64,000 bases of DNA from a virus (IMGVR_UViG_3300009149_000022:9727-73726); one strand, 5' to 3'; positions 1-26,476 are shown, counted from the first letter of the stretch. Numbers and translations are program-made. The notes: a model not told the origin generated them from the letters alone.

Positions 1-1
1 A

Positions 2-1270
2 CACCCACAATATAAAGATATCATATATCAATTTAATTTACCCAAGATACTTTTTTGTGATATTGAAACCGATATACACGATGGGTTTCCCGATCCAAAT
101 GTGGCAAAAGAAAAAATAACCGCAATTACAGTTTGTTGGAAAGATGATAACAACAAAATTCAAGTTCTTGTACTAGGAGAAAAAGAAGATTTCGATTATA
201 AAAAACAGAAAGAAATGAACAATTTTATTGTTGATTATTTTTCTAAAGTAACAGATATGGATATCATAATGAAATATTTACATATCCCGGACGAAAAAAA
301 ATTATTAGAATCGTTTGTGAAAATTTGCTCAAAATTTCATGTCTTAACAGGATGGAATTTCATAAATACTTTTCGAGCGAATTGGGCCAATGATAGTGGT
401 TTTGACTGGCCATTCTTATCAAATAGAATGGACTTATTAAAGGTTGACTATAAACAAATATCACCAACAAATAACGTATCTAGGAAAAAAGATATAGGTA
501 AAGTACCTAGTCATTTTGCAATTGTTGATTATATGTATTATTTTGATGCATTTGATAGAAGTATTAAAGTAAAAGAATCTAAAGGTTTAGATTTTGTTTC
601 TGGACAAGTGTTGGGTGTTAAGAAATTGAAATATGGTAACTATCCTGTTATGAATGGGGATGTACTAAAAGAAATGTATCAAAATGATTATGATACATAT
701 TGTATATACAACGCTATTGATACTATTTTAGTGCTCTTAATACACGAAAAAAGACAACCATTTACTGCCATTTTAGCACAAGGAAATGCATCAGGTAATC
801 ATATAGACAAAGCAGATTCTGCTGTTAACGTTACTGAAGGTTTTATGTCAAAAGCATATATCCAAGATAATAAAGTATTGCCCCTTATAGATATATCAAA
901 AAGAGAAAAAGAATCTTATGAAGGTGCATATGTAAAATCTCCAATAGCTGGGTTACACACCCTAACGTGTTGTTATGATTTTAGTTCACTTTATCCTTCT
1001 ATATCTAGATTCTTAGAATTGGGGTTTGAAAATTTTGATAAAAAGATTATAGGAGATTTAAAAAAATATTCAAACTACAAAGAACAATCTGTAAAATTAG
1101 AAAGAACTAATAATGATGAAATAATAAGTGTTACTGGTTGTGTCTTTAAAAAGGGTCAATCTACTTTGAAAACAGTATATGATGATTTGTATGCTGACAG
1201 AAAGAAAAATCAATACCGATCTAAATTGTGTGCAAAAATATCACACGAAATAAAACAAAAACGTAAATAA
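2..1270 (+). CDS. gp43: Family B DNA polymerase, N-terminal piece (3'-5' exonuclease + palm motif A; gp43A-like), 5'-truncated by the window
   Basis: Frame is open back to base 2 and contains ExoI FCDIET, ExoII GWN...FDWPF, ExoIII YNAID, YEGAYV and motif A DFSSLYPS; it ends in the fingers helix (LYADRKK). Confidence 0.93.
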   Translation, partial: HPQYKDIIYQFNLPKILFCDIETDIHDGFPDPNVAKEKITAITVCWKDDNNKIQVLVLGEKEDFDYKKQKEMNNFIVDYFSKVTDMDIIMKYLHIPDEKKLLESFVKICSKFHVLTGWNFINTFRANWANDSGFDWPFLSNRMDLLKVDYKQISPTNNVSRKKDIGKVPSHFAIVDYMYYFDAFDRSIKVKESKGLDFVSGQVLGVKKLKYGNYPVMNGDVLKEMYQNDYDTYCIYNAIDTILVLLIHEKRQPFTAILAQGNASGNHIDKADSAVNVTEGFMSKAYIQDNKVLPLIDISKREKESYEGAYVKSPIAGLHTLTCCYDFSSLYPSISRFLELGFENFDKKIIGDLKKYSNYKEQSVKLERTNNDEIISVTGCVFKKGQSTLKTVYDDLYADRKKNQYRSKLCAKISHEIKQKRK

Positions 1271-1302
1271 ATACATTTAATAATAAACAAAACAGTAATT
1301 TA

Positions 1303-2091
1303 ATGAAAAAAGTAGTATTAAAAACAGTAGACCTAGTAAAGTTTAACAACTTTATTGATTCATTGATTCCACTTAATGAAACCGGAACTATTTATTTTAA
1401 AATAGATTCTAAATATATTAGTACAGATTCACATAATGATAGTGGTACTATCATTAAGAGTCTGAAATCTGAAATTAGTCAAATATGTGGAGAATCAAAC
1501 TTAGATAGTATTGATAAACCAATTAAACTTTGTTTCTATGATGGTAAAAAAGTAAAGAAAGCATTTTCCTTTTTGAGTGGTAATGAAATTACTTGTGAAA
1601 TATCGTTTTCAGAACTAGAATCAACCGGTGAATATTTTGCAGAAACTGTTAAGATTTCTAGTCCTAAAATATCCATCACATTAGATGCAGCAGACCCAGA
1701 ATTATTCGAATTTGCAAATGTACCAGAAGATAAAATAGAAGAGGTTAAAAATGTTTCAAATGCTGATTGTAATTTTAGAATGAGTGCAAATGAAATTTTA
1801 CAAGTTCAAAAATTCTTAGATTTTGATAAAAATGAAGAAGTTGAATTTAGAGTAAATGGACAAGTTACCGTTTGTTCAGAAGATGCTTATGATATTTCAA
1901 TTTCAGATGATTTCGAAGGATTGCCTAATGGTGGTATGAATATCTATAAAATAGGTAAAGAACTATTTAAATTAGTAGATTCTAATTCATATGTTGTATA
2001 TCCAGTATTAGATGAATGTAAAATAATTTTTAAAGCAGAAGATAATTCTACACAAGTAGTTATCACATTACATGAAGACATAGATTTATAA
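1303..2091 (+). CDS. Sliding clamp (gp45/PCNA-like)
   Basis: 262 aa acidic protein with an alternating alpha/beta clamp-like pattern, lying between polymerase pieces; a clamp loader is present in the window. Confidence 0.65.
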   Translation: MKKVVLKTVDLVKFNNFIDSLIPLNETGTIYFKIDSKYISTDSHNDSGTIIKSLKSEISQICGESNLDSIDKPIKLCFYDGKKVKKAFSFLSGNEITCEISFSELESTGEYFAETVKISSPKISITLDAADPELFEFANVPEDKIEEVKNVSNADCNFRMSANEILQVQKFLDFDKNEEVEFRVNGQVTVCSEDAYDISISDDFEGLPNGGMNIYKIGKELFKLVDSNSYVVYPVLDECKIIFKAEDNSTQVVITLHEDIDL

Positions 2092-2092
2092 T

Positions 2093-2836
2093 ATGTCCAT
2101 AAGCATTAAAAATATGAGCACAGAAGAACTAGAGAATTTCGATTGGGATTCTCTAGATGATTCTCAATTAGATAAAGTTCTTGTTCAGTTAGATGATGAA
2201 GCCAATATTAAGAAAACACTAGAGCAAAGTAACAAATTAGTTCTTAATTCAATATATGGCGCACTTGCGTCTAAATACTTTTATTGGTATGATAAATCAT
2301 TAGCTGAAACTATTACTATACAAGGTCAAGATGCTATTCGATATGCTGAAAAGGCATTAGATTCTTATTTTCATAATGTTTTTCACAAAGATAAATTAGT
2401 TTTGACTAAACTAAAAGAATTGTGTCCAGATGTTAATATTGAACCACAACCGTGTGTGAAACCCACTGTGGTATATATTGATACGGATAGTGTCGATAAA
2501 GATACTATTGTTAGTACTAATAAAGGCAATATTAGAATAGAAGATTTATATAACGAATCTAACAATAGTGCTGGTAATACACAAAACGGTCACGAATCAG
2601 TAACAACCAATAAAACCGTATTAAATTGGTCAAAAGAAAAAGGACTATATCAAGCACCAGTGAAAAGAGTTATTAGACACAAAGTAACTAAAGCAAAGTG
2701 GAAACTTAAAACTAAATCAGGAAAGGAAGTAATCGTAACTAATGACCACTCTATGATTGTTTTTAGGAATGGTATTAAAGTTCAAGTTAAACCATCAGAA
2801 ATTAAAAAAACTGATAAAATATTATCAGTTTTGTAG
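2093..2836 (+). CDS. gp43: PolB middle piece (motif B KLVLNSIYG, first half of motif C YIDTD) fused to a split-intein N-fragment
   Basis: KxxxNSxYG, ITxQGQ and YIDTD are followed by Hint sequence SVDKDTIV...IRIEDLY...VTNDHS. Confidence 0.92.
   Translation: MSISIKNMSTEELENFDWDSLDDSQLDKVLVQLDDEANIKKTLEQSNKLVLNSIYGALASKYFYWYDKSLAETITIQGQDAIRYAEKALDSYFHNVFHKDKLVLTKLKELCPDVNIEPQPCVKPTVVYIDTDSVDKDTIVSTNKGNIRIEDLYNESNNSAGNTQNGHESVTTNKTVLNWSKEKGLYQAPVKRVIRHKVTKAKWKLKTKSGKEVIVTNDHSMIVFRNGIKVQVKPSEIKKTDKILSVL
2489..2833 (+). other. Split intein N-fragment (115 aa, Ser1)
   Basis: Block A SVDKDTIV, block B VIVTNDHS (TxxH), ends KPSEIKKTDKILSVL-stop. Confidence 0.92.
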
Positions 2837-2912
2837 TTCATTATGGAAAGAATTAATATGGCATAATGGACAAAGAAAACAAATTCAATAGAACAAGTAG
2901 AAAAAATAGTAA

Positions 2913-3041
2913 ATGAAATACGAAATAGAAGAAATAGAATCAATTGAGTGTATAGGAGATTTCGAAGATGAATATGTCTATGATATTGAAGTAGATGACG
3001 ATACTCACACTTTCATTGCTAATGGTATATTAGTTCATAAT
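2913..3041 (+). other. Split intein C-fragment (43 aa, ends HN, +1 Ser)
   Basis: Block F VYDIEV and block G ILVHN/S, with its own ATG. Confidence 0.93.
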
Positions 3042-3866
3042 AGTGCTTATGTTACTTTCGAAGAGGTTGCGGAAAAAATTAATTGGACGGGTTCTCCTAC
3101 TGATCTTGTATTAACTATTAATGAAATTAGATTATCTGGTTATCTAAAAAAGGTATTTGATAAATACGCCGAATCTTACAACACAGATAATTATTTAGAT
3201 TTCGAATTAGAAACTATTAGTAAATCTGGTATATGGGTTAAGAAAAAGAAATACACACAAGATATTGTGTGGGCTGATGGTAAATTCTATGATAGTGGAA
3301 CATATACAAAAACAACCGGTCTTGAAATTATTAGACTAACAACACCACCTTTTTGTAGACCTGAATTATCTAAATTGGTTCAATGGATATTTGATAAAGG
3401 TAAAAACTTTACACAAAGAGATATAACCATTGAATTACTAAAACTAAAGAAACGATTTGCCATAGCAGGTATAGAAGACATTTCGATAACAACAGCAATT
3501 GGTGACTATGAAAAATATGTTATAGATGACAAAGACTCTTTAAATCTCAATGATGGTTGTGGTACACATATTAGAGGTGCTGCGATTTATAATATGTACA
3601 TTAATAACAATTCATCATATGAAAATCAATACGAAAGGTTAAAAACGGGTGACAAGGTAAAATGGTATTATGCAAAATCACATAAATCAGATTATAACGT
3701 TTTTAGTTTTAAACGTGGTTCATTCCCTAAAGAATTTGCACCAGAAGTGGATATTGATTTGATGTTTGAAAAAACTATCATAAATCCATTAAACAACATA
3801 CTACAAGCAATACCAGGTATTAATAAACTATCTGGATCTTTAAAAATTAAAAATCGTTTATTTTAA
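2913..3866 (+). CDS. gp43: Split-intein C-fragment fused to PolB C-terminal piece (rest of palm, thumb)
   Basis: YVYDIEV...HTFIANGILVHN then SAYVTF, KKKY, TGLEIIR, HIRGA. Confidence 0.93.
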   Translation: MKYEIEEIESIECIGDFEDEYVYDIEVDDDTHTFIANGILVHNSAYVTFEEVAEKINWTGSPTDLVLTINEIRLSGYLKKVFDKYAESYNTDNYLDFELETISKSGIWVKKKKYTQDIVWADGKFYDSGTYTKTTGLEIIRLTTPPFCRPELSKLVQWIFDKGKNFTQRDITIELLKLKKRFAIAGIEDISITTAIGDYEKYVIDDKDSLNLNDGCGTHIRGAAIYNMYINNNSSYENQYERLKTGDKVKWYYAKSHKSDYNVFSFKRGSFPKEFAPEVDIDLMFEKTIINPLNNILQAIPGINKLSGSLKIKNRLF

Positions 3867-3883
3867 AAAAATGAAATAATTAT

Positions 3884-5104
3884 ATGACAAAAGTAAGTAA
3901 AAAACACAGTTCTGTCGATGACATATTCAAAGAATTAGGAGAAGTTAACCCCTTTGGAACAAGTTCCTTTGGTAATTCAGAAACCTATAAGAATGAAACA
4001 TGGATAGATTCTGGTAATTGGATTTTAAATGCAGCCCTAAGTGGATCAATAAAAAAAGGGTTTCCAAGTACTAAACAAACCAGTTTAGTAGGAGAATCTG
4101 GTAGTGGAAAAACATTCTTAACATTGAACGCTGTAAGAAATGCCCAACAAATGGGTTACACACCAATATATTACGATACAGAAGGTGCTGTTGATCCACA
4201 AGCATGTATAAATTTTGGAATTGATTTAGATAATTTTAGACACGAACCAGTTTCCGAAATCGAAAAACTGAAAACCATGTTTGCTATTTTTATCAAGAGT
4301 TTAACAGATTTAAAAATAAAAGGTAAAGAAATTCCAAAATTTATTTTGATTCTAGATTCTATTGGTATGGTTGCATCATCTAAAGAAATCGAAGATGCGA
4401 GAACGGGTAATAGTGCTGCGGATATGACAAGAGCAAAACAAATACGATCTTTTTTTAGAATAATCACATCTGATTTAAATTCATTGGGAATACCTATGTT
4501 ATTCACAAATCACGTAGGTGTTAATATAGGAGGATATGGTGATCCTGTTGTACAAGGTGGTGGTAGTGGTGTGGTTTATTCACCAAGTATTACATTATTT
4601 TTATCTAAAGCTAAATTGAAAGATGATAAAGGTGATGATAAGAAACAAACTGGTGTTATAGTTACAGCAAAAACCGGTAAAAATAGATTTGCACAACCAA
4701 AAACAATTAAATTCCCCATTTTCTTTGATAGACCGTTTAATAGATATATGGGTGTACAAGATTATTTGACTTGGGAAAATGTGGGTATTGCAAAGGGTAA
4801 TATTTTAACAGAAAAAGAATATAGTAAACTCAAAGGTGCTGAATTAGAAAAAGTTAAATCATTCACACCATCTGGTAGTGAAGAAGTAATGTATTTTATG
4901 CCAAAAGAAACAGCTAGGAATTATGTTATTGAACATTTGGGTATTACGGTTGACGCACGAAACTTATTTACTGATAAAGTAATGTTACCCTTAGAAGACC
5001 GATTCGATAAAGTTATTAGAAAAGATTTTGAGTTTAGTTCCCAAGAATCTGATAGTGAAATAGATGGTTTGATAGATGAATCTGATGAAGAAATCGAAGA
5101 TTAA
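3884..5104 (+). CDS. uvsX: UvsX/RecA-like recombinase
   Basis: GESGSGKT, YDTEGA, ILDSIG, DMTRAK, GGG motif, KNRF. Confidence 0.93.
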   Translation: MTKVSKKHSSVDDIFKELGEVNPFGTSSFGNSETYKNETWIDSGNWILNAALSGSIKKGFPSTKQTSLVGESGSGKTFLTLNAVRNAQQMGYTPIYYDTEGAVDPQACINFGIDLDNFRHEPVSEIEKLKTMFAIFIKSLTDLKIKGKEIPKFILILDSIGMVASSKEIEDARTGNSAADMTRAKQIRSFFRIITSDLNSLGIPMLFTNHVGVNIGGYGDPVVQGGGSGVVYSPSITLFLSKAKLKDDKGDDKKQTGVIVTAKTGKNRFAQPKTIKFPIFFDRPFNRYMGVQDYLTWENVGIAKGNILTEKEYSKLKGAELEKVKSFTPSGSEEVMYFMPKETARNYVIEHLGITVDARNLFTDKVMLPLEDRFDKVIRKDFEFSSQESDSEIDGLIDESDEEIED

Positions 5105-5190
5105 AATTGTTAATACATAAATACAAAACCGAATTATCTATGATTTTTCGGTTTTTTGTGTTCATTAAATATATAAAATATGATAATCAC

Positions 5191-5394
5191 ATGAAAGGTT
5201 TATGCGACATACTAAAAGAATCAAAAGAATCCGATAAATTAGCTAATGGAATAAATAAAGCTATTGTGAAAATTGATGATAATATGAGTTATACTGATTT
5301 TGCACTTGCTGTTGCAAAGATTCTAAAAGATGAATATGGTGAACATAATTTCGAACCATTCACTAAAGTTCTACACAAAGAATTAGGAATGTGA
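5191..5394 (+). CDS. Small hypothetical protein with capsid-targeting-like leader
   Basis: ATG 5191 after TTAAATA; MKGLCDILKES; followed by a terminator. Confidence 0.6.
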   Translation: MKGLCDILKESKESDKLANGINKAIVKIDDNMSYTDFALAVAKILKDEYGEHNFEPFTKVLHKELGM

Positions 5395-5419
5395 TTTCAC
5401 ATTGCTACATAAAATATAT

Positions 5420-5450
5420 AAAAGGACTAAAATTATTTAGTCCTTTTTTT
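5420..5450 (+). terminator. Intrinsic terminator
   Basis: AAAAGGACTAAA-loop-TTTAGTCCTTTTTTT. Confidence 0.8.
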
Positions 5451-5476
5451 GTTGTAATATACAAATAAGATTGTAT

Positions 5477-6775
5477 ATGATAAACACAAGTGAATTTGAA
5501 AAGATTTTTTTACTTTTCGCATTAGAAAATCCGGTATATTTAGAACCCATAGAAAGATCATTTTTTTCTGTTCCTGAAATAGATTTACTTGCAATAATTT
5601 CTAAAAAATATTATAAGAAATTCAAAAAAGCACCATCAAAAGAAAACTTGTGGATGTTAATATCTACTGGTGAATTAGAAGAAAAATGTCCTAAGATTTT
5701 TTTCGATGAAATATTTAAGAAAAACATTAGAGAATATGATATTGAATGGGTTGAACAAACGGCACAATCTTGGATTAAATGGAAACACTTAGATTCTTCA
5801 ATTGTAGATACTGTTGAATATATAAACACCGCAAAAGTTACACCAGAAAATGTTGGTGAAATTGTTGATAGTGTTAAGAATATGATTAATGGTAGAAACA
5901 ATCTAACATTTGATGATGATCTGGGTACAGACTTTTTTGATGCAAAATCCCATAAAAGAAATGCAGAAGATTTACTTAGTTCTAATTACGATTTCATAGA
6001 TAAAAACTTAGGTGGTCATTCTAAAGGTACACTAAATGTGTATATTGCACCACCTAATACTGGTAAGTCATTATTCCTTTGTCAAGATGCTGCTAATTAT
6101 ATTAAATCGGGAAAAAATGTTTTATACATTTCATTAGAAATGCAAGGACAAAAGGTACATAAACGAATAGGTTCTGATATTTTCAACATAAATATAAGTC
6201 AATACGACAAAAAAGCCGAAGATTTAGACTATATGCAACGTAAGATTACTGAATTCAAAGAAATGAATTTAGTAACACCGGGTGCATTAACAGTTAGGAA
6301 TTACGAAACTAGTAATGCAACAGCTGATGATATTGATAATTTTATTGGTAAAATACAAGATATAACTGGTATAATATATGATGTTGTTTTGGTTGACTAT
6401 ATCAACATCATGAAAGATAAAAGAAATCCTAATTCTGAATCTACATATTTGAAAATTAAAAATATATCAGAGGATTTAAGAGCAGTTGCACAAAGAAGAC
6501 ATGTTGTGATGATAAGTGCCACACAAACAAATAAAATGGGAATAGAATCGTCTAATTTAAATTTAAGCCATATTGCAGAGTCAGCTGGTCTTGCTGCAAC
6601 TTGTGATACTATTATGGCTATTATACAAACAGCTGAAATGAATTTAGAAAATTTCTATTGGTTGAAACTCATAAAAGTTAGAGATGGATCAAAGGGTGCT
6701 AAATGTCGTATCAATATAGACTATGATTATATGAGACTTACTGAAACCAATACTGTTATGTTCGATTCGGAATAA
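5477..6775 (+). CDS. gp41: Replicative DnaB-like helicase (gp41)
   Basis: APPNTGKS, YISLEM, LVDYIN, SATQTN, IAESAGL, KVRDG. Confidence 0.93.
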   Translation: MINTSEFEKIFLLFALENPVYLEPIERSFFSVPEIDLLAIISKKYYKKFKKAPSKENLWMLISTGELEEKCPKIFFDEIFKKNIREYDIEWVEQTAQSWIKWKHLDSSIVDTVEYINTAKVTPENVGEIVDSVKNMINGRNNLTFDDDLGTDFFDAKSHKRNAEDLLSSNYDFIDKNLGGHSKGTLNVYIAPPNTGKSLFLCQDAANYIKSGKNVLYISLEMQGQKVHKRIGSDIFNINISQYDKKAEDLDYMQRKITEFKEMNLVTPGALTVRNYETSNATADDIDNFIGKIQDITGIIYDVVLVDYINIMKDKRNPNSESTYLKIKNISEDLRAVAQRRHVVMISATQTNKMGIESSNLNLSHIAESAGLAATCDTIMAIIQTAEMNLENFYWLKLIKVRDGSKGAKCRINIDYDYMRLTETNTVMFDSE

Positions 6776-6860
6776 ATTACTACTCTACTAAAGATAATGT
6801 AGTAATTTATACCAGTTTGACGGCATTGGTAATGTATTAAAGTTTTTGGTTAAATAATAT

Positions 6861-7808
6861 ATGAAGATAACCGAAAATGATAATATACAATGGGAAAGAA
6901 TGGGAATTTACATATTACTAAATGAAAACGGAAAGTGTTATATAGGTAGTACTAACAATATAAAAAATAGATATTTTAGACATAAACACCTGTTGGTGAA
7001 TGGTAAACACGGCAAGTATATACAAAGAGCATATAATAAAAAAACAGCTAAGTTTAATTTTGAAATATTGGAATATGTAGACGATGTTAAAGATTTAAGA
7101 AAAAGAGAGGCACACTATATAAAAGAATACCAATCTATGTACTATCAAAATGGATATAATATTTTTGATGTGGATGATAATGGATATTTTTGCCATTCAG
7201 ATGAAACTAAAAAGAAAATATCAGAAGCAAATAGAGGTAAAATACCATATATAGATATTTTTGGGGCACATGGTGTGACAACTAAAGATGATACAAGATG
7301 GGAAAGTGGCGAAATATATCACAATACTACAAATAAAGTTTCTTGTATAGATAGTAATGGAAATACTAAAGTGGTAACTATGGAAGAATTTGAATCATCA
7401 AAAGATTTGTTTGGTGTCAATAAAGGTAAAAGTACATACAAGGACAAGTATGGAAATACTACAATGACTACCATAGATGACCCTAGAGTATTAAGTGGTG
7501 AGTTGGTTGGTATTACTAAAGGAATACCTTCATTGCATGCCAAGGTAATTACTGTTGATGGTATAACATATCGTTCGTTAGAAGATGCATATACAACACT
7601 AGGAATATCAAAACCAACTTTCCGTAAACTATTAAAGGATGTAAATAATATTATATCTACCGTTCCATTTCAAGTGTCATTGTCAAAATATTTAGACGAA
7701 AAAAATAAAAGACAAGTTATTATAGATGGTATTGTATATAAGAATATGACAGTTGCTGTGAAAGAATTAGGAATAAGTAGGTATAAATTAAAAAAACATG
7801 AAAGCTAG
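6861..7808 (+). CDS. Free-standing GIY-YIG homing endonuclease (Seg-like; NUMOD3 and HTH tail)
   Basis: GIYILL...YIGST, REAHYI, GYN, HSDETKKKISEA, two C-terminal DGIxY HTH-like repeats. Confidence 0.9.
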   Translation: MKITENDNIQWERMGIYILLNENGKCYIGSTNNIKNRYFRHKHLLVNGKHGKYIQRAYNKKTAKFNFEILEYVDDVKDLRKREAHYIKEYQSMYYQNGYNIFDVDDNGYFCHSDETKKKISEANRGKIPYIDIFGAHGVTTKDDTRWESGEIYHNTTNKVSCIDSNGNTKVVTMEEFESSKDLFGVNKGKSTYKDKYGNTTMTTIDDPRVLSGELVGITKGIPSLHAKVITVDGITYRSLEDAYTTLGISKPTFRKLLKDVNNIISTVPFQVSLSKYLDEKNKRQVIIDGIVYKNMTVAVKELGISRYKLKKHES

Positions 7809-7878
7809 GATAAACATTGATTATGATTATATGAGATTACAAGAAACTAATACGATTATTTTTGATTCTGGTGAATAA
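7798..7878 (+). pseudogene. Orphan second copy of the helicase 3' end (MKARINIDYDYMRLQETNTIIFDSGE)
   Basis: Aligns with the helicase C-terminus KCRINIDYDYMRLTETNTVMFDSE, with many synonymous differences. Confidence 0.9.
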
Positions 7879-7900
7879 AATATTTACACAAAAAAACGCA

Positions 7901-7914
7901 TTTAATAAGTATAA
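7901..7914 (+). promoter_or_regulatory. Putative middle promoter motif TTTAATAAGTATAA
   Basis: Near-identical copies at 23080, 45551 and 48903, each just upstream of a start codon. Confidence 0.55.
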
Positions 7915-7924
7915 ATAAGCATTT

Positions 7925-8401
7925 ATGGCAGAAGAGAAAAAAACAAATAAAGAAACGAATTATTATCTACAAGAAAGGTATTTGAGTGGTGAGATGAATA
8001 CCGATAAGATTTCCTTTGAACCTGATACGAGTAGTAGGTTATATTTTGATAATTCACAAGAATCTGCGAATAAGATGGTAGATTTAGAAGAATTAGAAAA
8101 ATGTATTGTGTCCAATGAAACTATTAAAAAAATAATAGATGATATCCCACTAGAAAGGACAATTAATTTACCTATTGAAAGTGTAAATAAGATATATTCA
8201 TATTGTATGTTATTGTTAAAATCTAATGAGCGTTTGTCAAAACTTACTAAGATAGAAATGTTTTCCTTAATAACAGATTATATAAATTTGAATGAAAAGG
8301 AAACAAAATACTTTTACAAAAACCTATCTATAAAATTCAAATCTGATTTATTAGACGAATTAAAAAAAGCAAAACTATATAAAGATAATAAACTTTTTTA
8401 A
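7925..8401 (+). CDS. Hypothetical protein
   Basis: 158 aa ORF in the operon. Confidence 0.75.
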   Translation: MAEEKKTNKETNYYLQERYLSGEMNTDKISFEPDTSSRLYFDNSQESANKMVDLEELEKCIVSNETIKKIIDDIPLERTINLPIESVNKIYSYCMLLLKSNERLSKLTKIEMFSLITDYINLNEKETKYFYKNLSIKFKSDLLDELKKAKLYKDNKLF

Positions 8402-24071: not shown

Positions 24072-25257
24072 ATTTACACTAATAGTCGATGGTAACTATT
24101 TATTATATTCTACTTTGAGTGTGATTCAGCTATTTTCGCCCAAAAACACTATGTTTTTGAAAGACAATGATGAAGAAATCATAAGAAAAGATACAAACGT
24201 GTTGTTAGAAAAACTCACACAAGTATATTCTAAAGACATTAGAAGTATTAGTCCCATATTAGAAAATGTTGTGATTACTGTTGATGATTCCAATTCTTGG
24301 CGAAAAGATTTACACTTAACGAAAAATTATAAGGGTATAAAAAAACATTTACACTATAAGGGTAACCGACACAAGGACGAAAGTTTAAATTGGAATATTA
24401 TTTTCGAAGTATTCAATTCATTTTTAAAAGGTGTTGCCCTATCATCTAATGTTCACTTTAAATCTATTCCCGGATGTGAAGCTGATGATTTAATATTTGG
24501 GTATGCAAATTATTTAAGTGCGATGGGTAAAAGTTCTATAATTTATTCTGGTGATGGTGACTTAAAACAATGTGTGGGATTTAATAAAAGTAAAAATGCG
24601 TTTATAGTTCAATATCAAAAACAAATTAAGAAAATGTGGATTGATAGAGAAACCGCTTTATACTTAAAAGAAAACCAAAAATCATACTTAGTTGATTGCA
24701 TTCGTTCCGTCGTTGCTAATACATCATCTAAACTTAGTGTTGTGAACCCATTTGAGGTCGTTCTGGGCAAAGTTTTAGGTGGTGATGTATCAGACAACAT
24801 TTTTCCAATTATCGTTGAATCTAGACAATATAAACCAACCGCAAAAAAAGCAGGTGAATGGTTCGAAACTGGTGTGACTAATACAATTATTAATAATATA
24901 CAAAAAGAAATTGAATTTTCAAAATATAACGTAGAAGATTTATTTCGCTCGGATTTCAAAAAAAAGTTAGCAAGTTCTACATTGCGAAATTTCAAAACAC
25001 AAAATCGCTATTCGGTTGATGATATTGAAAACAACGTAGATGTTAATACAACATTAGTATTATTACATAAAGATACTATACCTAGTTATTTGTATTCTGA
25101 AATAATAGATTGGTGCGAAAAGGTTTTTGAAAAAAAGAATTGTGATTTAAAAACCCAATTTGATTATAAGAAATTATTACAATCTATATCACTATATGAT
25201 AAAAAGTTACATGACAATTCATCAAGTGCAAGTATTTTTAAAGAATTAGGTATATGA
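24064..25257 (+). CDS. rnh: T4 RNase H-like 5'-3' exonuclease
   Basis: VDGNY, SWRK, YKGNR, EADDLI, SGDGDLKQ, GDVSDNI. Confidence 0.9.
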   Translation: MNKFTLIVDGNYLLYSTLSVIQLFSPKNTMFLKDNDEEIIRKDTNVLLEKLTQVYSKDIRSISPILENVVITVDDSNSWRKDLHLTKNYKGIKKHLHYKGNRHKDESLNWNIIFEVFNSFLKGVALSSNVHFKSIPGCEADDLIFGYANYLSAMGKSSIIYSGDGDLKQCVGFNKSKNAFIVQYQKQIKKMWIDRETALYLKENQKSYLVDCIRSVVANTSSKLSVVNPFEVVLGKVLGGDVSDNIFPIIVESRQYKPTAKKAGEWFETGVTNTIINNIQKEIEFSKYNVEDLFRSDFKKKLASSTLRNFKTQNRYSVDDIENNVDVNTTLVLLHKDTIPSYLYSEIIDWCEKVFEKKNCDLKTQFDYKKLLQSISLYDKKLHDNSSSASIFKELGI

Positions 25258-25694
25258 TAATTAAAACACCATTCGATATAATGAATCATTTGGGTAAATC
25301 ATCATATAATGAAATATCCAACATAGATAAAAAAAGACATTCTTTTATTATTAATAGAATGATGTCCAGGACATTACCCGATGTTGCTATTGACATGTCT
25401 CACATGAAAATGATACCAGAAACAGTTGTTGATTTTTGGCATTGTGCTTTTATGGATATGTCAAGAACACCAAGGGGTATGAAAATATTATCACACATAC
25501 GATCTGCTTTTAGAATTAGTATGGCTGGTGCAAAGAAAAAAGTTTCTAAAAAAATAGATTCAGATTTATCAAAAAAATACATGCAAATTAGTAAAATAGG
25601 ACAAAAAGAATTTGGTGTTTTGTCACATTATTACGAAAAGGAATTGATTAAATATCTAAAGAAACTATCTTATATGATAGAAACTACTAAATAA
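25254..25694 (+). CDS. Clamp loader small subunit (gp62-like)
   Basis: FIINRMMS motif resembles gp62; near gp44. Confidence 0.5.
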   Translation: MIIKTPFDIMNHLGKSSYNEISNIDKKRHSFIINRMMSRTLPDVAIDMSHMKMIPETVVDFWHCAFMDMSRTPRGMKILSHIRSAFRISMAGAKKKVSKKIDSDLSKKYMQISKIGQKEFGVLSHYYEKELIKYLKKLSYMIETTK

Positions 25695-25696
25695 AT

Positions 25697-26476
25697 ATGA
25701 ACATTAAAGAAAAATTTTGGGTGGGAACTTTCATATCACTATGGGTTCTCGTAAGTACTGTGAGTACATTTCACAGTGTGGAATTCTTTGGATTATCAAA
25801 TAATTTATTTCTTTCTTGGTGTATAGCAATCGGTTTTGAAATTGGTGCAATGGCATCACTAGGGGGGTTGTTAATTGACAAGGGAAATAAAACAATCGTT
25901 TGGATGTTGTTCATTATACTAACAGCTTTTCAAATTCATGGTAATATGTATTGGGCATGGTCACATGCTGGTGATATATCTGAATGGTCTAAGTTATTCG
26001 ATTTAGTTGAAGAAGACCCAAATTTTACAAAAAGAGTATTTGCATTTATAAGTGGTGGGATATTACCCCTAATTTCATTGGGGTTTATTAAATCATTAAT
26101 GGATTATATGAAACCTAAAGATGAGGTTGTAAAAGACAAAAATGATACACAAGAAGAAAAAACGGTTGAAAATACGATAGAAGATATCGAAGAAAATAAA
26201 AACGAATTACAAGAAGATGATTCTTTAGTTAACTTAGAAACCGAAATTGATATTCCCGAAAACACCCCAGTTGAAAATGATAATTTTGAAAAGTGGTCAA
26301 CAAGTGAATCAGAAGACCTGATGCCCGATGAACTTTTCGAATTAGGTAAACAAGAACCTGAACCTATTGACTATAATCCATTACCACGTGTGTTAAATAA
26401 GGAGATAGACCCTACTAAGTTAGGTGACATTATTGATAATGCAGAAAATACTGTAAATTCAATAGGTGAAAAATAA
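25697..26476 (+). CDS. Membrane protein (about 4 TM) with acidic tail
   Basis: Four hydrophobic segments in the N-terminal 135 aa. Confidence 0.7.
   Translation: MNIKEKFWVGTFISLWVLVSTVSTFHSVEFFGLSNNLFLSWCIAIGFEIGAMASLGGLLIDKGNKTIVWMLFIILTAFQIHGNMYWAWSHAGDISEWSKLFDLVEEDPNFTKRVFAFISGGILPLISLGFIKSLMDYMKPKDEVVKDKNDTQEEKTVENTIEDIEENKNELQEDDSLVNLETEIDIPENTPVENDNFEKWSTSESEDLMPDELFELGKQEPEPIDYNPLPRVLNKEIDPTKLGDIIDNAENTVNSIGEK

Follow-up and report, generated by a model that had tools for sequence, protein, structure and literature searches.

In phage T4 the replication genes follow the order 43-regA-62-44-45, with the clamp gene lying downstream of an unsplit gene 43. Forms of gp43 that are split at the fingertip, encoded as 43A and 43B, are found in Aeromonas phages 25, 31, 44RR and 65 and in Acinetobacter phage 133 (Petrov 2006, 2010, as cited in PMC3061061 and PMC2677866), and PMC3061061 describes both the fingertip-split gp43 and an engineered split Pfu polymerase as active. 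Likewise, the split-intein family-B polymerase (PolB) of Nanoarchaeum equitans (Choi et al. 2006) is recounted, together with a gene-breaking model, in PMC2677866. The locus described here opens a 64,000-nt stretch of viral DNA (the window; IMGVR_UViG_3300009149_000022, bases 9727-73726 of a 73.7-kb IMG/VR virus record with a completeness estimate of 27%). It encodes a gp43-type (T4-type) family-B replicative polymerase in three open reading frames (ORFs), and the gap between the first two holds a gene whose predicted product has the fold of a sliding clamp. As an explanation of the whole, we favour a three-polypeptide T4-type replicative polymerase with its own trimeric ring clamp encoded in the gap, and put the probability of this reading at roughly 85%.

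Four co-oriented ORFs on the plus strand, at 2-1270 (open at the window start), 1303-2091, 2093-2836 and 2913-3866, make up the locus, at positions that agree with the original prediction; the GC content is ~28-29% across the region. The first, third and fourth of them are the polymerase pieces 1, 2 and 3. The Pfam and PHROG matches of all pieces, in combination with their tiling of an unsplit relative, confirm that a single gp43-type polymerase is encoded in three ORFs, and thus bear out the earlier proposal of an enzyme built from three translation products. Piece 1, which is gp43A-like and 502 residues long, occupies 1-1270 in the window, with its stop codon at 1268-1270. It is complete in the contig (locus L003, 1262-2770, corresponding to window -238 to 1270), the first 80 codons being found at contig positions 9488-9726, upstream of the window. 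Its sequence matches the Pfam domain DNA_pol_B_exo1 and the start of DNA_pol_B, as well as PHROG 2062, a 502-position polymerase N-half family (2.8e-56), and aligns to RB69 gp43 residues 101-430, motif A included. The Exo I motif DIE of the 3'-5' exonuclease, which follows the N-terminal domain, lies at 59-67, motif A (DFSSLYPS), at the start of the palm, at 977-1000, and the first fingers helix at 1163-1264. An AlphaFold2 (AF2) model of piece 1, built with 28 relatives and reaching a predicted local distance difference test score (pLDDT) of 78.7, ends at its C-terminus in one long helix, residues 468-501. The whole model can be superposed on residues 4-504 of RB69 gp43, with a Z score of 29.8 and a root-mean-square deviation of 5.9 A over 437 residues, and likewise on residues 4-501 of T4 gp43.

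The polymerase resumes in piece 2 with an N-extein of 132 residues (2093-2488; supported by Pfam, PHROG and PDB matches), composed of an acidic fingertip head, the second fingers helix and the palm up to motif C. Motif B (KLVLNSIYGAL, 2234-2266) is located in the second fingers helix, and motif C (YIDTD, residues 128-132) can be read from the ORF at 2474-2488. Matching against PDB sequences places residues 40-96 of piece 2 on RB69 residues 552-608 and residues 21-96 on T4 gp43 residues 530-605, a span that covers motif B. The remaining palm, the thumb and a tail ending ...KNRLF are encoded by the C-extein of piece 3 (residues 44-317, 3042-3866; Pfam and PHROG). This extein opens with Ser+1, finishing motif C as DTD-S, and from residue 44 onwards piece 3 matches the rest of DNA_pol_B and PHROG 1918, a C-half family (3e-41). 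When the three pieces are laid on the unsplit 869-residue polymerase of locus L094 they cover residues 1-478, 502-601 and 599-862, and ~23 fingertip residues stay unaligned. [quoted passage not shown] The original prediction of a break at the fingers tip, as in gp43A/gp43B, is thereby upheld, piece 1 ending in the helix of residues 468-501 and piece 2 resuming at the second fingers helix. In the window, as in some of the relatives, piece 2 is in frame with piece 1; other relatives differ in this respect, and the common frame was set aside as chance.

As the source is a single metagenomic contig, ~27% complete, the breaks could in principle be assembly or sequencing errors, or mark the decaying polymerase gene of a defective phage. 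However, the gene is broken at identical points, and with proper start and stop codons, in 88 viral contigs and in cultured phages; no catalytic motif of the polymerase, exonuclease or intein is damaged, and the reading frames are long and conserved. In view of these observations an artefact or decay is exceedingly improbable.

A split intein at motif C accounts for the second break, as had been proposed, and the evidence for it comes from domain and structure matches, readable catalytic residues and intein-less alleles. The N-terminal intein half (2489-2836) consists of residues 133-247 of piece 2 and is followed by the stop codon; it starts with Ser1 and carries the block B motif T-N-D-H at residues 216-219. 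A spacer of 76 nt (2837-2912), bounded by the limits of the two ORFs, separates it from the C-terminal half (2913-3041), which makes up residues 1-43 of piece 3 and ends in His-Asn. Ser1, TNDH, His-Asn and Ser+1 are thus all present in the sequence. The intein splicing domain PF14890 is matched by piece 2 residues 143-244 (3.1e-9) and by piece 3 residues 6-43 (4.2e-5, under the gathering score). Among PDB sequences, piece 2 is best matched (3.5e-11) by 9hth_A, a solved 173-residue phage PolB intein labelled 'DNA-directed DNA polymerase', whose chain starts with IDTD and goes on as intein. In five related contigs (L005-L009) the corresponding alleles are intein-less, piece-2 residues 1-134 and piece-3 residues 43-317 abutting in a single ORF. 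The limits of the intein, at piece-2 residues 133-247 and piece-3 residues 1-43, follow from the fact that these contigs are without exactly that element.

The relatives of the locus differ in the state of this intein. It is also split in L004, L010 and L011. In L083 (8863-10500) a contiguous mini-intein occupies the same motif-C site within a 545-residue C-half ORF; a gene for a C-5 cytosine methylase is found just upstream of the clamp gene of that locus. The intein halves of PTm1 are separated by a gene for a Vsr-type endonuclease, and those of LR756500 by a 567-residue DUF7487/restriction endonuclease ORF. No homing endonuclease gene lies between the halves in the window, where only the 76-nt spacer is found, and this arrangement fits the 'endonuclease lost' stage of the gene-breaking model (PMC2677866). 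Across the relatives the intein is missing, contiguous, or split, in the last case with or without an endonuclease, and this series matches the stages of that model. Nucleotide likeness to distant phages is limited to, or centred on, the intein-coding parts (window 2489-3053), with identities of 68-71% to PTm1 and an uncultured 462-kb phage, 76% to Lak megaphages and 82% to gp43 of Campylobacter phage CP21, the last match reaching 12 nt into the C-extein. This pattern points to horizontal spread of the PolB intein, as expected of a mobile element. To judge from these sequence features, pieces 2 and 3 would be joined by trans-splicing.

The gap at the fingers tip is occupied by ORF 1303 (1303-2091), which encodes a 262-residue protein and whose stop codon lies 1 nt ahead of the start of piece 2. 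The ORF has no Pfam and no PHROG match, and a tblastn search against 50,697 phage records gave no match, the clamp family being too diverged for BLAST; the links to phage homologues given below were made by pairwise BLASTP, hhalign and fold comparison. Marine metagenomes contain 30 close homologues, and an AF2 model from their alignment (pLDDT 88.8, predicted template-modelling score 0.84) shows two strand-helix-strand repeats in a two-domain fold of the PCNA/gp45 type. A Foldseek search of the PDB with this model returned sliding clamps alone (PCNA, bacterial beta and T4 gp45), with a probability of 1.0, a template-modelling (TM) score of ~0.67 and E values of 1.4e-11 for PCNA and 1.3e-10 for T4 gp45 (6drt), in keeping with the earlier assignment of the gap gene as a clamp. 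Among the viral models of BFVD the best matches are 'uncharacterized' proteins of PTm1, pT24 and uncultured phages (TM 0.8), followed by viral PCNAs and T4-like 'sliding clamp' proteins. By its modelled fold ORF 1303 is a clamp, but one that stands outside the gp45 sequence family. The most conserved motif of the family, DAADP.L.EFANVP (residues 128-141), is situated in the linker joining the two domains. The corresponding linker of PCNA contributes to the pocket in which partners bind. A profile of the clamp family, run over 1.84 billion representatives, recovered at least 165 clusters at 50% identity.

Prediction with three copies of the protein yielded a head-to-tail homotrimer with a score of 0.72, against 0.02 for the best control; among solved proteins, the 0.72 mark is attained by 20 of 30 that form same-chain pairs and by 1 of 23 that are single chains. 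Contact agreement between the trimer runs was at least 92% and the pLDDT of the partner at least 88. In the predicted interface, strand 122-126 and helix 83-90 pack against strand 194-199 and helix 167-174 of the next copy, which is the geometry of PCNA and gp45. The score may in part reflect likeness to solved clamp rings, and it supports ring formation without demonstrating it. The expected loader for such a ring is encoded further along the window, where the plus-strand gene at 23118-24071 matches PHROG 168, 'clamp loader of DNA polymerase', with an E value of 5.7e-70 and specifies a gp44-like AAA+ clamp-loader subunit. The clamp-family profile detected no second copy among the 34 other ORFs of the window. 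Similarly, the complete genomes of PTm1, MA9V-2 and LR756500 hold at most one clamp-family copy each, beside the polymerase C-half, detected by profile in MA9V-2 and LR756500 and by pairwise BLASTP in PTm1. The gp45 Pfam families PF02916 and PF09116 gave no hit in the contig, in ORF 1303 or in the PTm1, MA9V-2 and LR756500 genomes. The C-half, in turn, ends in a short hydrophobic tail, ...RLF here and ...S/A-LF in most relatives, of which LF is conserved in ~45 distinct C-halves; we take this tail to resemble the C-terminal clamp-binding tails of T4-family polymerases. A canonical clamp fits the locus because of the gp44-like loader, the lone clamp-family copy in complete relatives and the hydrophobic tail of the C-half.

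Conservation of the gene order was surveyed in 88 loci with flanks, comprising 8 close viral contigs and 80 of a second clamp subfamily, many of them near-identical contigs whose counts are not independent events; the IMG/VR matches numbered 253. The second-subfamily loci were found with an 18-sequence subfamily alignment, and IMG/VR searches with three single distant clamp representatives gave no match. The clamp ORF is directly followed by the polymerase C-half in 86 of the 88 loci, with a gap of -14 to +16 nt in 75 of those 86. The position of the N-half is considerably more variable: it is found 31-208 nt upstream of the clamp in 11 loci and 2.2-5.2 kb upstream in 55, typically with genes for the small and large subunits of ribonucleotide reductase in between, and it is absent within 5.7-8 kb upstream in a further five. 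Ribonucleotide reductase genes take this place in L029 (5054-7907), for example, and in most of L021-L097. Cultured and complete phages show the same order, namely PTm1 (ORF-236 to ORF-241, with ORF-237 as the clamp homologue, BLASTP 2e-8), pT24 (genes 165 to 168), Sphingomonas phage PAU (gp105 to gp110, gp109 being the clamp) and Chryseobacterium phage MA9V-2 (genes 192 to 196, the clamp being gene 194; hhalign E 8e-6, profile 2.5e-7). In MA9V-2 an inserted gene of the TnpB family separates the clamp from the C-half (L012, 10693-11859). The N-half of LR756500 lies ~10 kb upstream, and in Lak megaphages the halves are far apart. The layout is accordingly conserved and not peculiar to this genome. 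As the N-half varies in position while the order of clamp and C-half stays, the conserved unit is the clamp together with the C-half, and the compact N-half/clamp/C-half form of the window is one variant of it. The clamp is annotated as 'hypothetical' in the GenBank records of PTm1, pT24, PAU and MA9V, and we found no paper naming the gap gene as a clamp.

To the limited independence of these loci, further points are to be added that weigh against the reading of ORF 1303 as the ring clamp of this polymerase. The protein is without sequence match to the gp45, PCNA and beta-clamp families, its role as a clamp being argued from the modelled fold, the predicted ring, the presence of a loader and the gene context, and a second, canonical clamp may be encoded elsewhere in the genome, of which the contig represents ~27%. 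The missing sequence match would also suit a dedicated polymerase subunit that, instead of being a free ring dependent on a loader, binds directly to the split enzyme as a monomer and grips duplex DNA in the manner of PhiKZ Rhc or herpesvirus UL42, and that might assist in holding or folding the C-half. A monomeric clamp-derived processivity subunit is indeed known alongside a split family-B polymerase of a phage (PMC13648687); the clamp gene is fixed directly before the C-half and seemingly coupled to it in translation, and the C-fragment of the engineered split polymerase is soluble only with its partner (PMC3061061). However, phages of the PhiKZ type have no clamp loader, whereas a strong gp44-like loader is encoded here and a loader is present in relatives as well (MA9V-1 ORF237, PMC10537231). 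Furthermore, a head-to-tail trimer is predicted, complete relatives show no other candidate on which the loader could act, and the PhiKZ polymerase is split within a palm insertion and not in the fingers. The presence of the loader and the predicted trimer interface thus disfavour placing ORF 1303 in the loader-free, non-ring class of UL42 and PhiKZ Rhc, and we consider a monomeric subunit distinctly unlikely.

The survey also bears on how the gene order arose. The original prediction had the clamp gene inserted at the fingers split; the clamp does lie in the first gap, but insertion over-reads the history, the clamp/C-half pair being invariant, the N-half free and the L094 polymerase unsplit. 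Entry of a clamp gene into a split polymerase gene and breakage of the polymerase gene around an older clamp-polymerase operon both remain candidates. In a specific form of the latter the clamp was never inserted: an ancestral operon of clamp and whole polymerase would have undergone tandem duplication with complementary loss, or its 5' half would have been relocated upstream. In L094 (8001-11380) the clamp directly precedes the unsplit polymerase, which has a short fingertip, and this together with the invariant clamp/C-half unit and the mobility of the N-half (from 31 nt to more than 5 kb away, and further in LR756500 and the Lak phages) speaks for such a course. Conversely, a tree of the C-terminal region, with midpoint rooting only and several long branches, places L094 in an unresolved polytomy among split forms, and its deepest branches (PAU, PTm1, pT24 and MA9V-2) are all split, so that L094 could equally be a secondary re-fusion. 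On balance we hold a clamp that was never inserted to be possible, if rather doubtful.

Expression of the locus appears to be coordinated. No intrinsic terminator was found on the plus strand before position 5420, and an Rfam scan of 1-8000 revealed no intron or other RNA family. With the scan empty, RNA splicing across the gaps is unsupported. On the strength of both negative results the four genes are probably co-transcribed with uvsX. The first plus-strand terminator past the polymerase genes is a perfect 12-bp hairpin at 5420-5447, after an ORF at 5107-5394, with T-runs on both sides and hence the look of a bidirectional terminator. A scan for sigma-70 promoters gave a result below shuffle expectation. 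The intergenic word CATTTAATAA, shared upstream of the clamp, was considered as a signal and rejected, its 4 occurrences against 1.9 expected being not significant. The junction of 1 nt suggests translational coupling of the clamp and piece 2, and given this gap here and one of -14 to +16 nt in most relatives, the clamp and C-half genes are probably translationally coupled.

From these elements a path of assembly can be proposed. The clamp and the C-half would be made together through translational coupling. The two intein halves would associate, excise the intein and ligate ...YIDTD to SAYV..., rebuilding motif C and yielding a gp43B-like C-half of ~406 residues. This product would pair non-covalently with the 502-residue N-half, through the palm, to which both halves contribute, and through the fingers, whose two helices would presumably be supplied by the C-terminus of piece 1 (its long helix) and by the beginning of piece 2, as in gp43A/gp43B of T4-related phages. 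The trimeric clamp would then be loaded on DNA by the gp44-like complex, and the ...LF end conserved in the C-half would most likely be the point by which it tethers the polymerase. The gene structures, the folds, the location of the break, the synteny and the variable occurrence of the intein are shown; four steps, from trans-splicing and the joining of the halves to the loading of the clamp and its binding of the tail, are ones that we infer, the association of the halves into an active enzyme by analogy with the published T4-like and Pfu split enzymes. A more elaborate role, suggested by the fixed place of the clamp gene directly upstream of the C-half gene and their probable translational coupling, in which the clamp would serve as a co-translational docking platform that catches the tail of an unstable C-half and helps it to find the N-half, giving an obligate four-gene-product replicase assembled on the ring, appears unlikely.

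The original prediction further suggested that the basic tail of piece 1 may pair with the acidic head of piece 2. Among 38 distinct N-half/C-half pairs, the last 15 residues of the N-half carry a mean charge of +2.7 and the first 30 residues of the C-half one of -4.7, with the signs conserved. Such charges are reached by about 1 in 8-10 windows of the same proteins, and are thus only modestly unusual, and across the fingertip of the unsplit relative a basic run likewise gives way to an acidic one. The idea fits the data no more than weakly; two antiparallel fingers helices would show the pattern anyway.

The wider neighbourhood is that of a T4-related replication and morphogenesis module. Downstream (3') of the polymerase genes are found a UvsX-like recombinase, a DnaB/gp41-like helicase, a GIY-YIG endonuclease and gp47/gp46-like nuclease subunits, and the portal, prohead protease and major head genes come after the latter. 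The source virus is a marine jumbo myovirus and, by analogy with its relatives, its host is probably a member of the Bacteroidota. Two ORFs without family match (146 and 259 residues) are situated at 25254-26476, after the genes for the clamp loader and a 5'-3' exonuclease, and one of them could be a candidate for the small clamp-loader subunit (gp62 analogue). The uvsX gene is intact in the window (3884-5104). In L004 (5487-7652) and L010 (8895-10711) it seems broken, residues 1-74 and 69-406 matching ~0.6-0.9 kb apart, and in L011 (8557-8778) residues 1-74 alone fall inside the fetched locus; the gap in the uvsX of these close relatives may hold an intron or an endonuclease insertion. The last ~68 nt of the helicase gene (6701-6768) are repeated with 74% identity at 7801-7868, just past the GIY-YIG endonuclease gene (6861-7808), and so resemble a gene end that was duplicated and recoded, with a homing endonuclease between the copies.

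Since gp43 split at the fingertip is as well established as the family-B polymerase with a split intein, and since the database deposit of PTm1 already shows the three-piece layout with the intein annotated, little in the locus is new in principle. What the analysis adds is a name for a large unannotated clamp family, which supplies the clamp hitherto absent from the list of replisome proteins in PAU/PTm1-like jumbo phages. The clamp/C-half pair, conserved and probably co-translated in hundreds of environmental phage contigs, leads to a hypothesis on the coordinated synthesis of a split replicase. The relatives, moreover, constitute a natural series of all stages of gene breaking by a split intein, and the compact Ser/Ser split intein could serve protein engineers.

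Compared with known systems, the locus is closest in its first break to the 43A/43B polymerases of T4-related phages, which are likewise of gp43 type, broken between the fingers helices into two halves acting together, with a gap of 2 bp to 3 kb that may hold genes. Here, however, the gap contains the clamp gene, joined in most relatives by the ribonucleotide reductase genes, the C-half is broken again by a split intein, and the clade is that of the PAU/PTm1-like jumbo phages instead of the classical T4-like ones. PTm1 itself (AP019524) has the three polymerase pieces in the same order and the intein at the same motif-C site; its ORF-239 is annotated as 'intein-containing split DNA polymerase precursor', and its ORF-237, directly after piece 1, is a full-length homologue of ORF 1303 and the top structural match in BFVD (3.6e-19). 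It differs in having a DUF7487 ORF before piece 2 and the Vsr-type endonuclease between the intein halves, where the window has gaps of 1 nt and 76 nt. With the fractured genes of Dassa et al. (2009, PMC2677866) and the Nanoarchaeum PolB the locus has in common an essential replication gene broken inside an intein, with products rejoined by trans-splicing, here putatively. In contrast to those, the window would represent a late stage in which the endonuclease is lost and the halves are still adjacent, with a Ser1/Ser+1 intein in motif C of a phage gp43. Similarly to T4 gp45 and PCNA, the clamp is a two-domain monomer, here predicted to form a head-to-tail trimer, in a genome with an AAA+ loader and a polymerase bearing a short hydrophobic C-terminal tail, whereas ORF 1303 is without detectable sequence similarity to gp45, PCNA or the beta clamp and belongs to a family of its own. 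Finally, the DNAP-N/DNAP-C polymerase of PhiKZ with Rhc (PMC13648687) is also a two-chain phage family-B enzyme accompanied by a clamp-fold protein, but there the split lies within a palm insertion, the clamp-fold protein (Rhc) is fused to RNase H and works as a monomer without encircling DNA, and a clamp loader is lacking.

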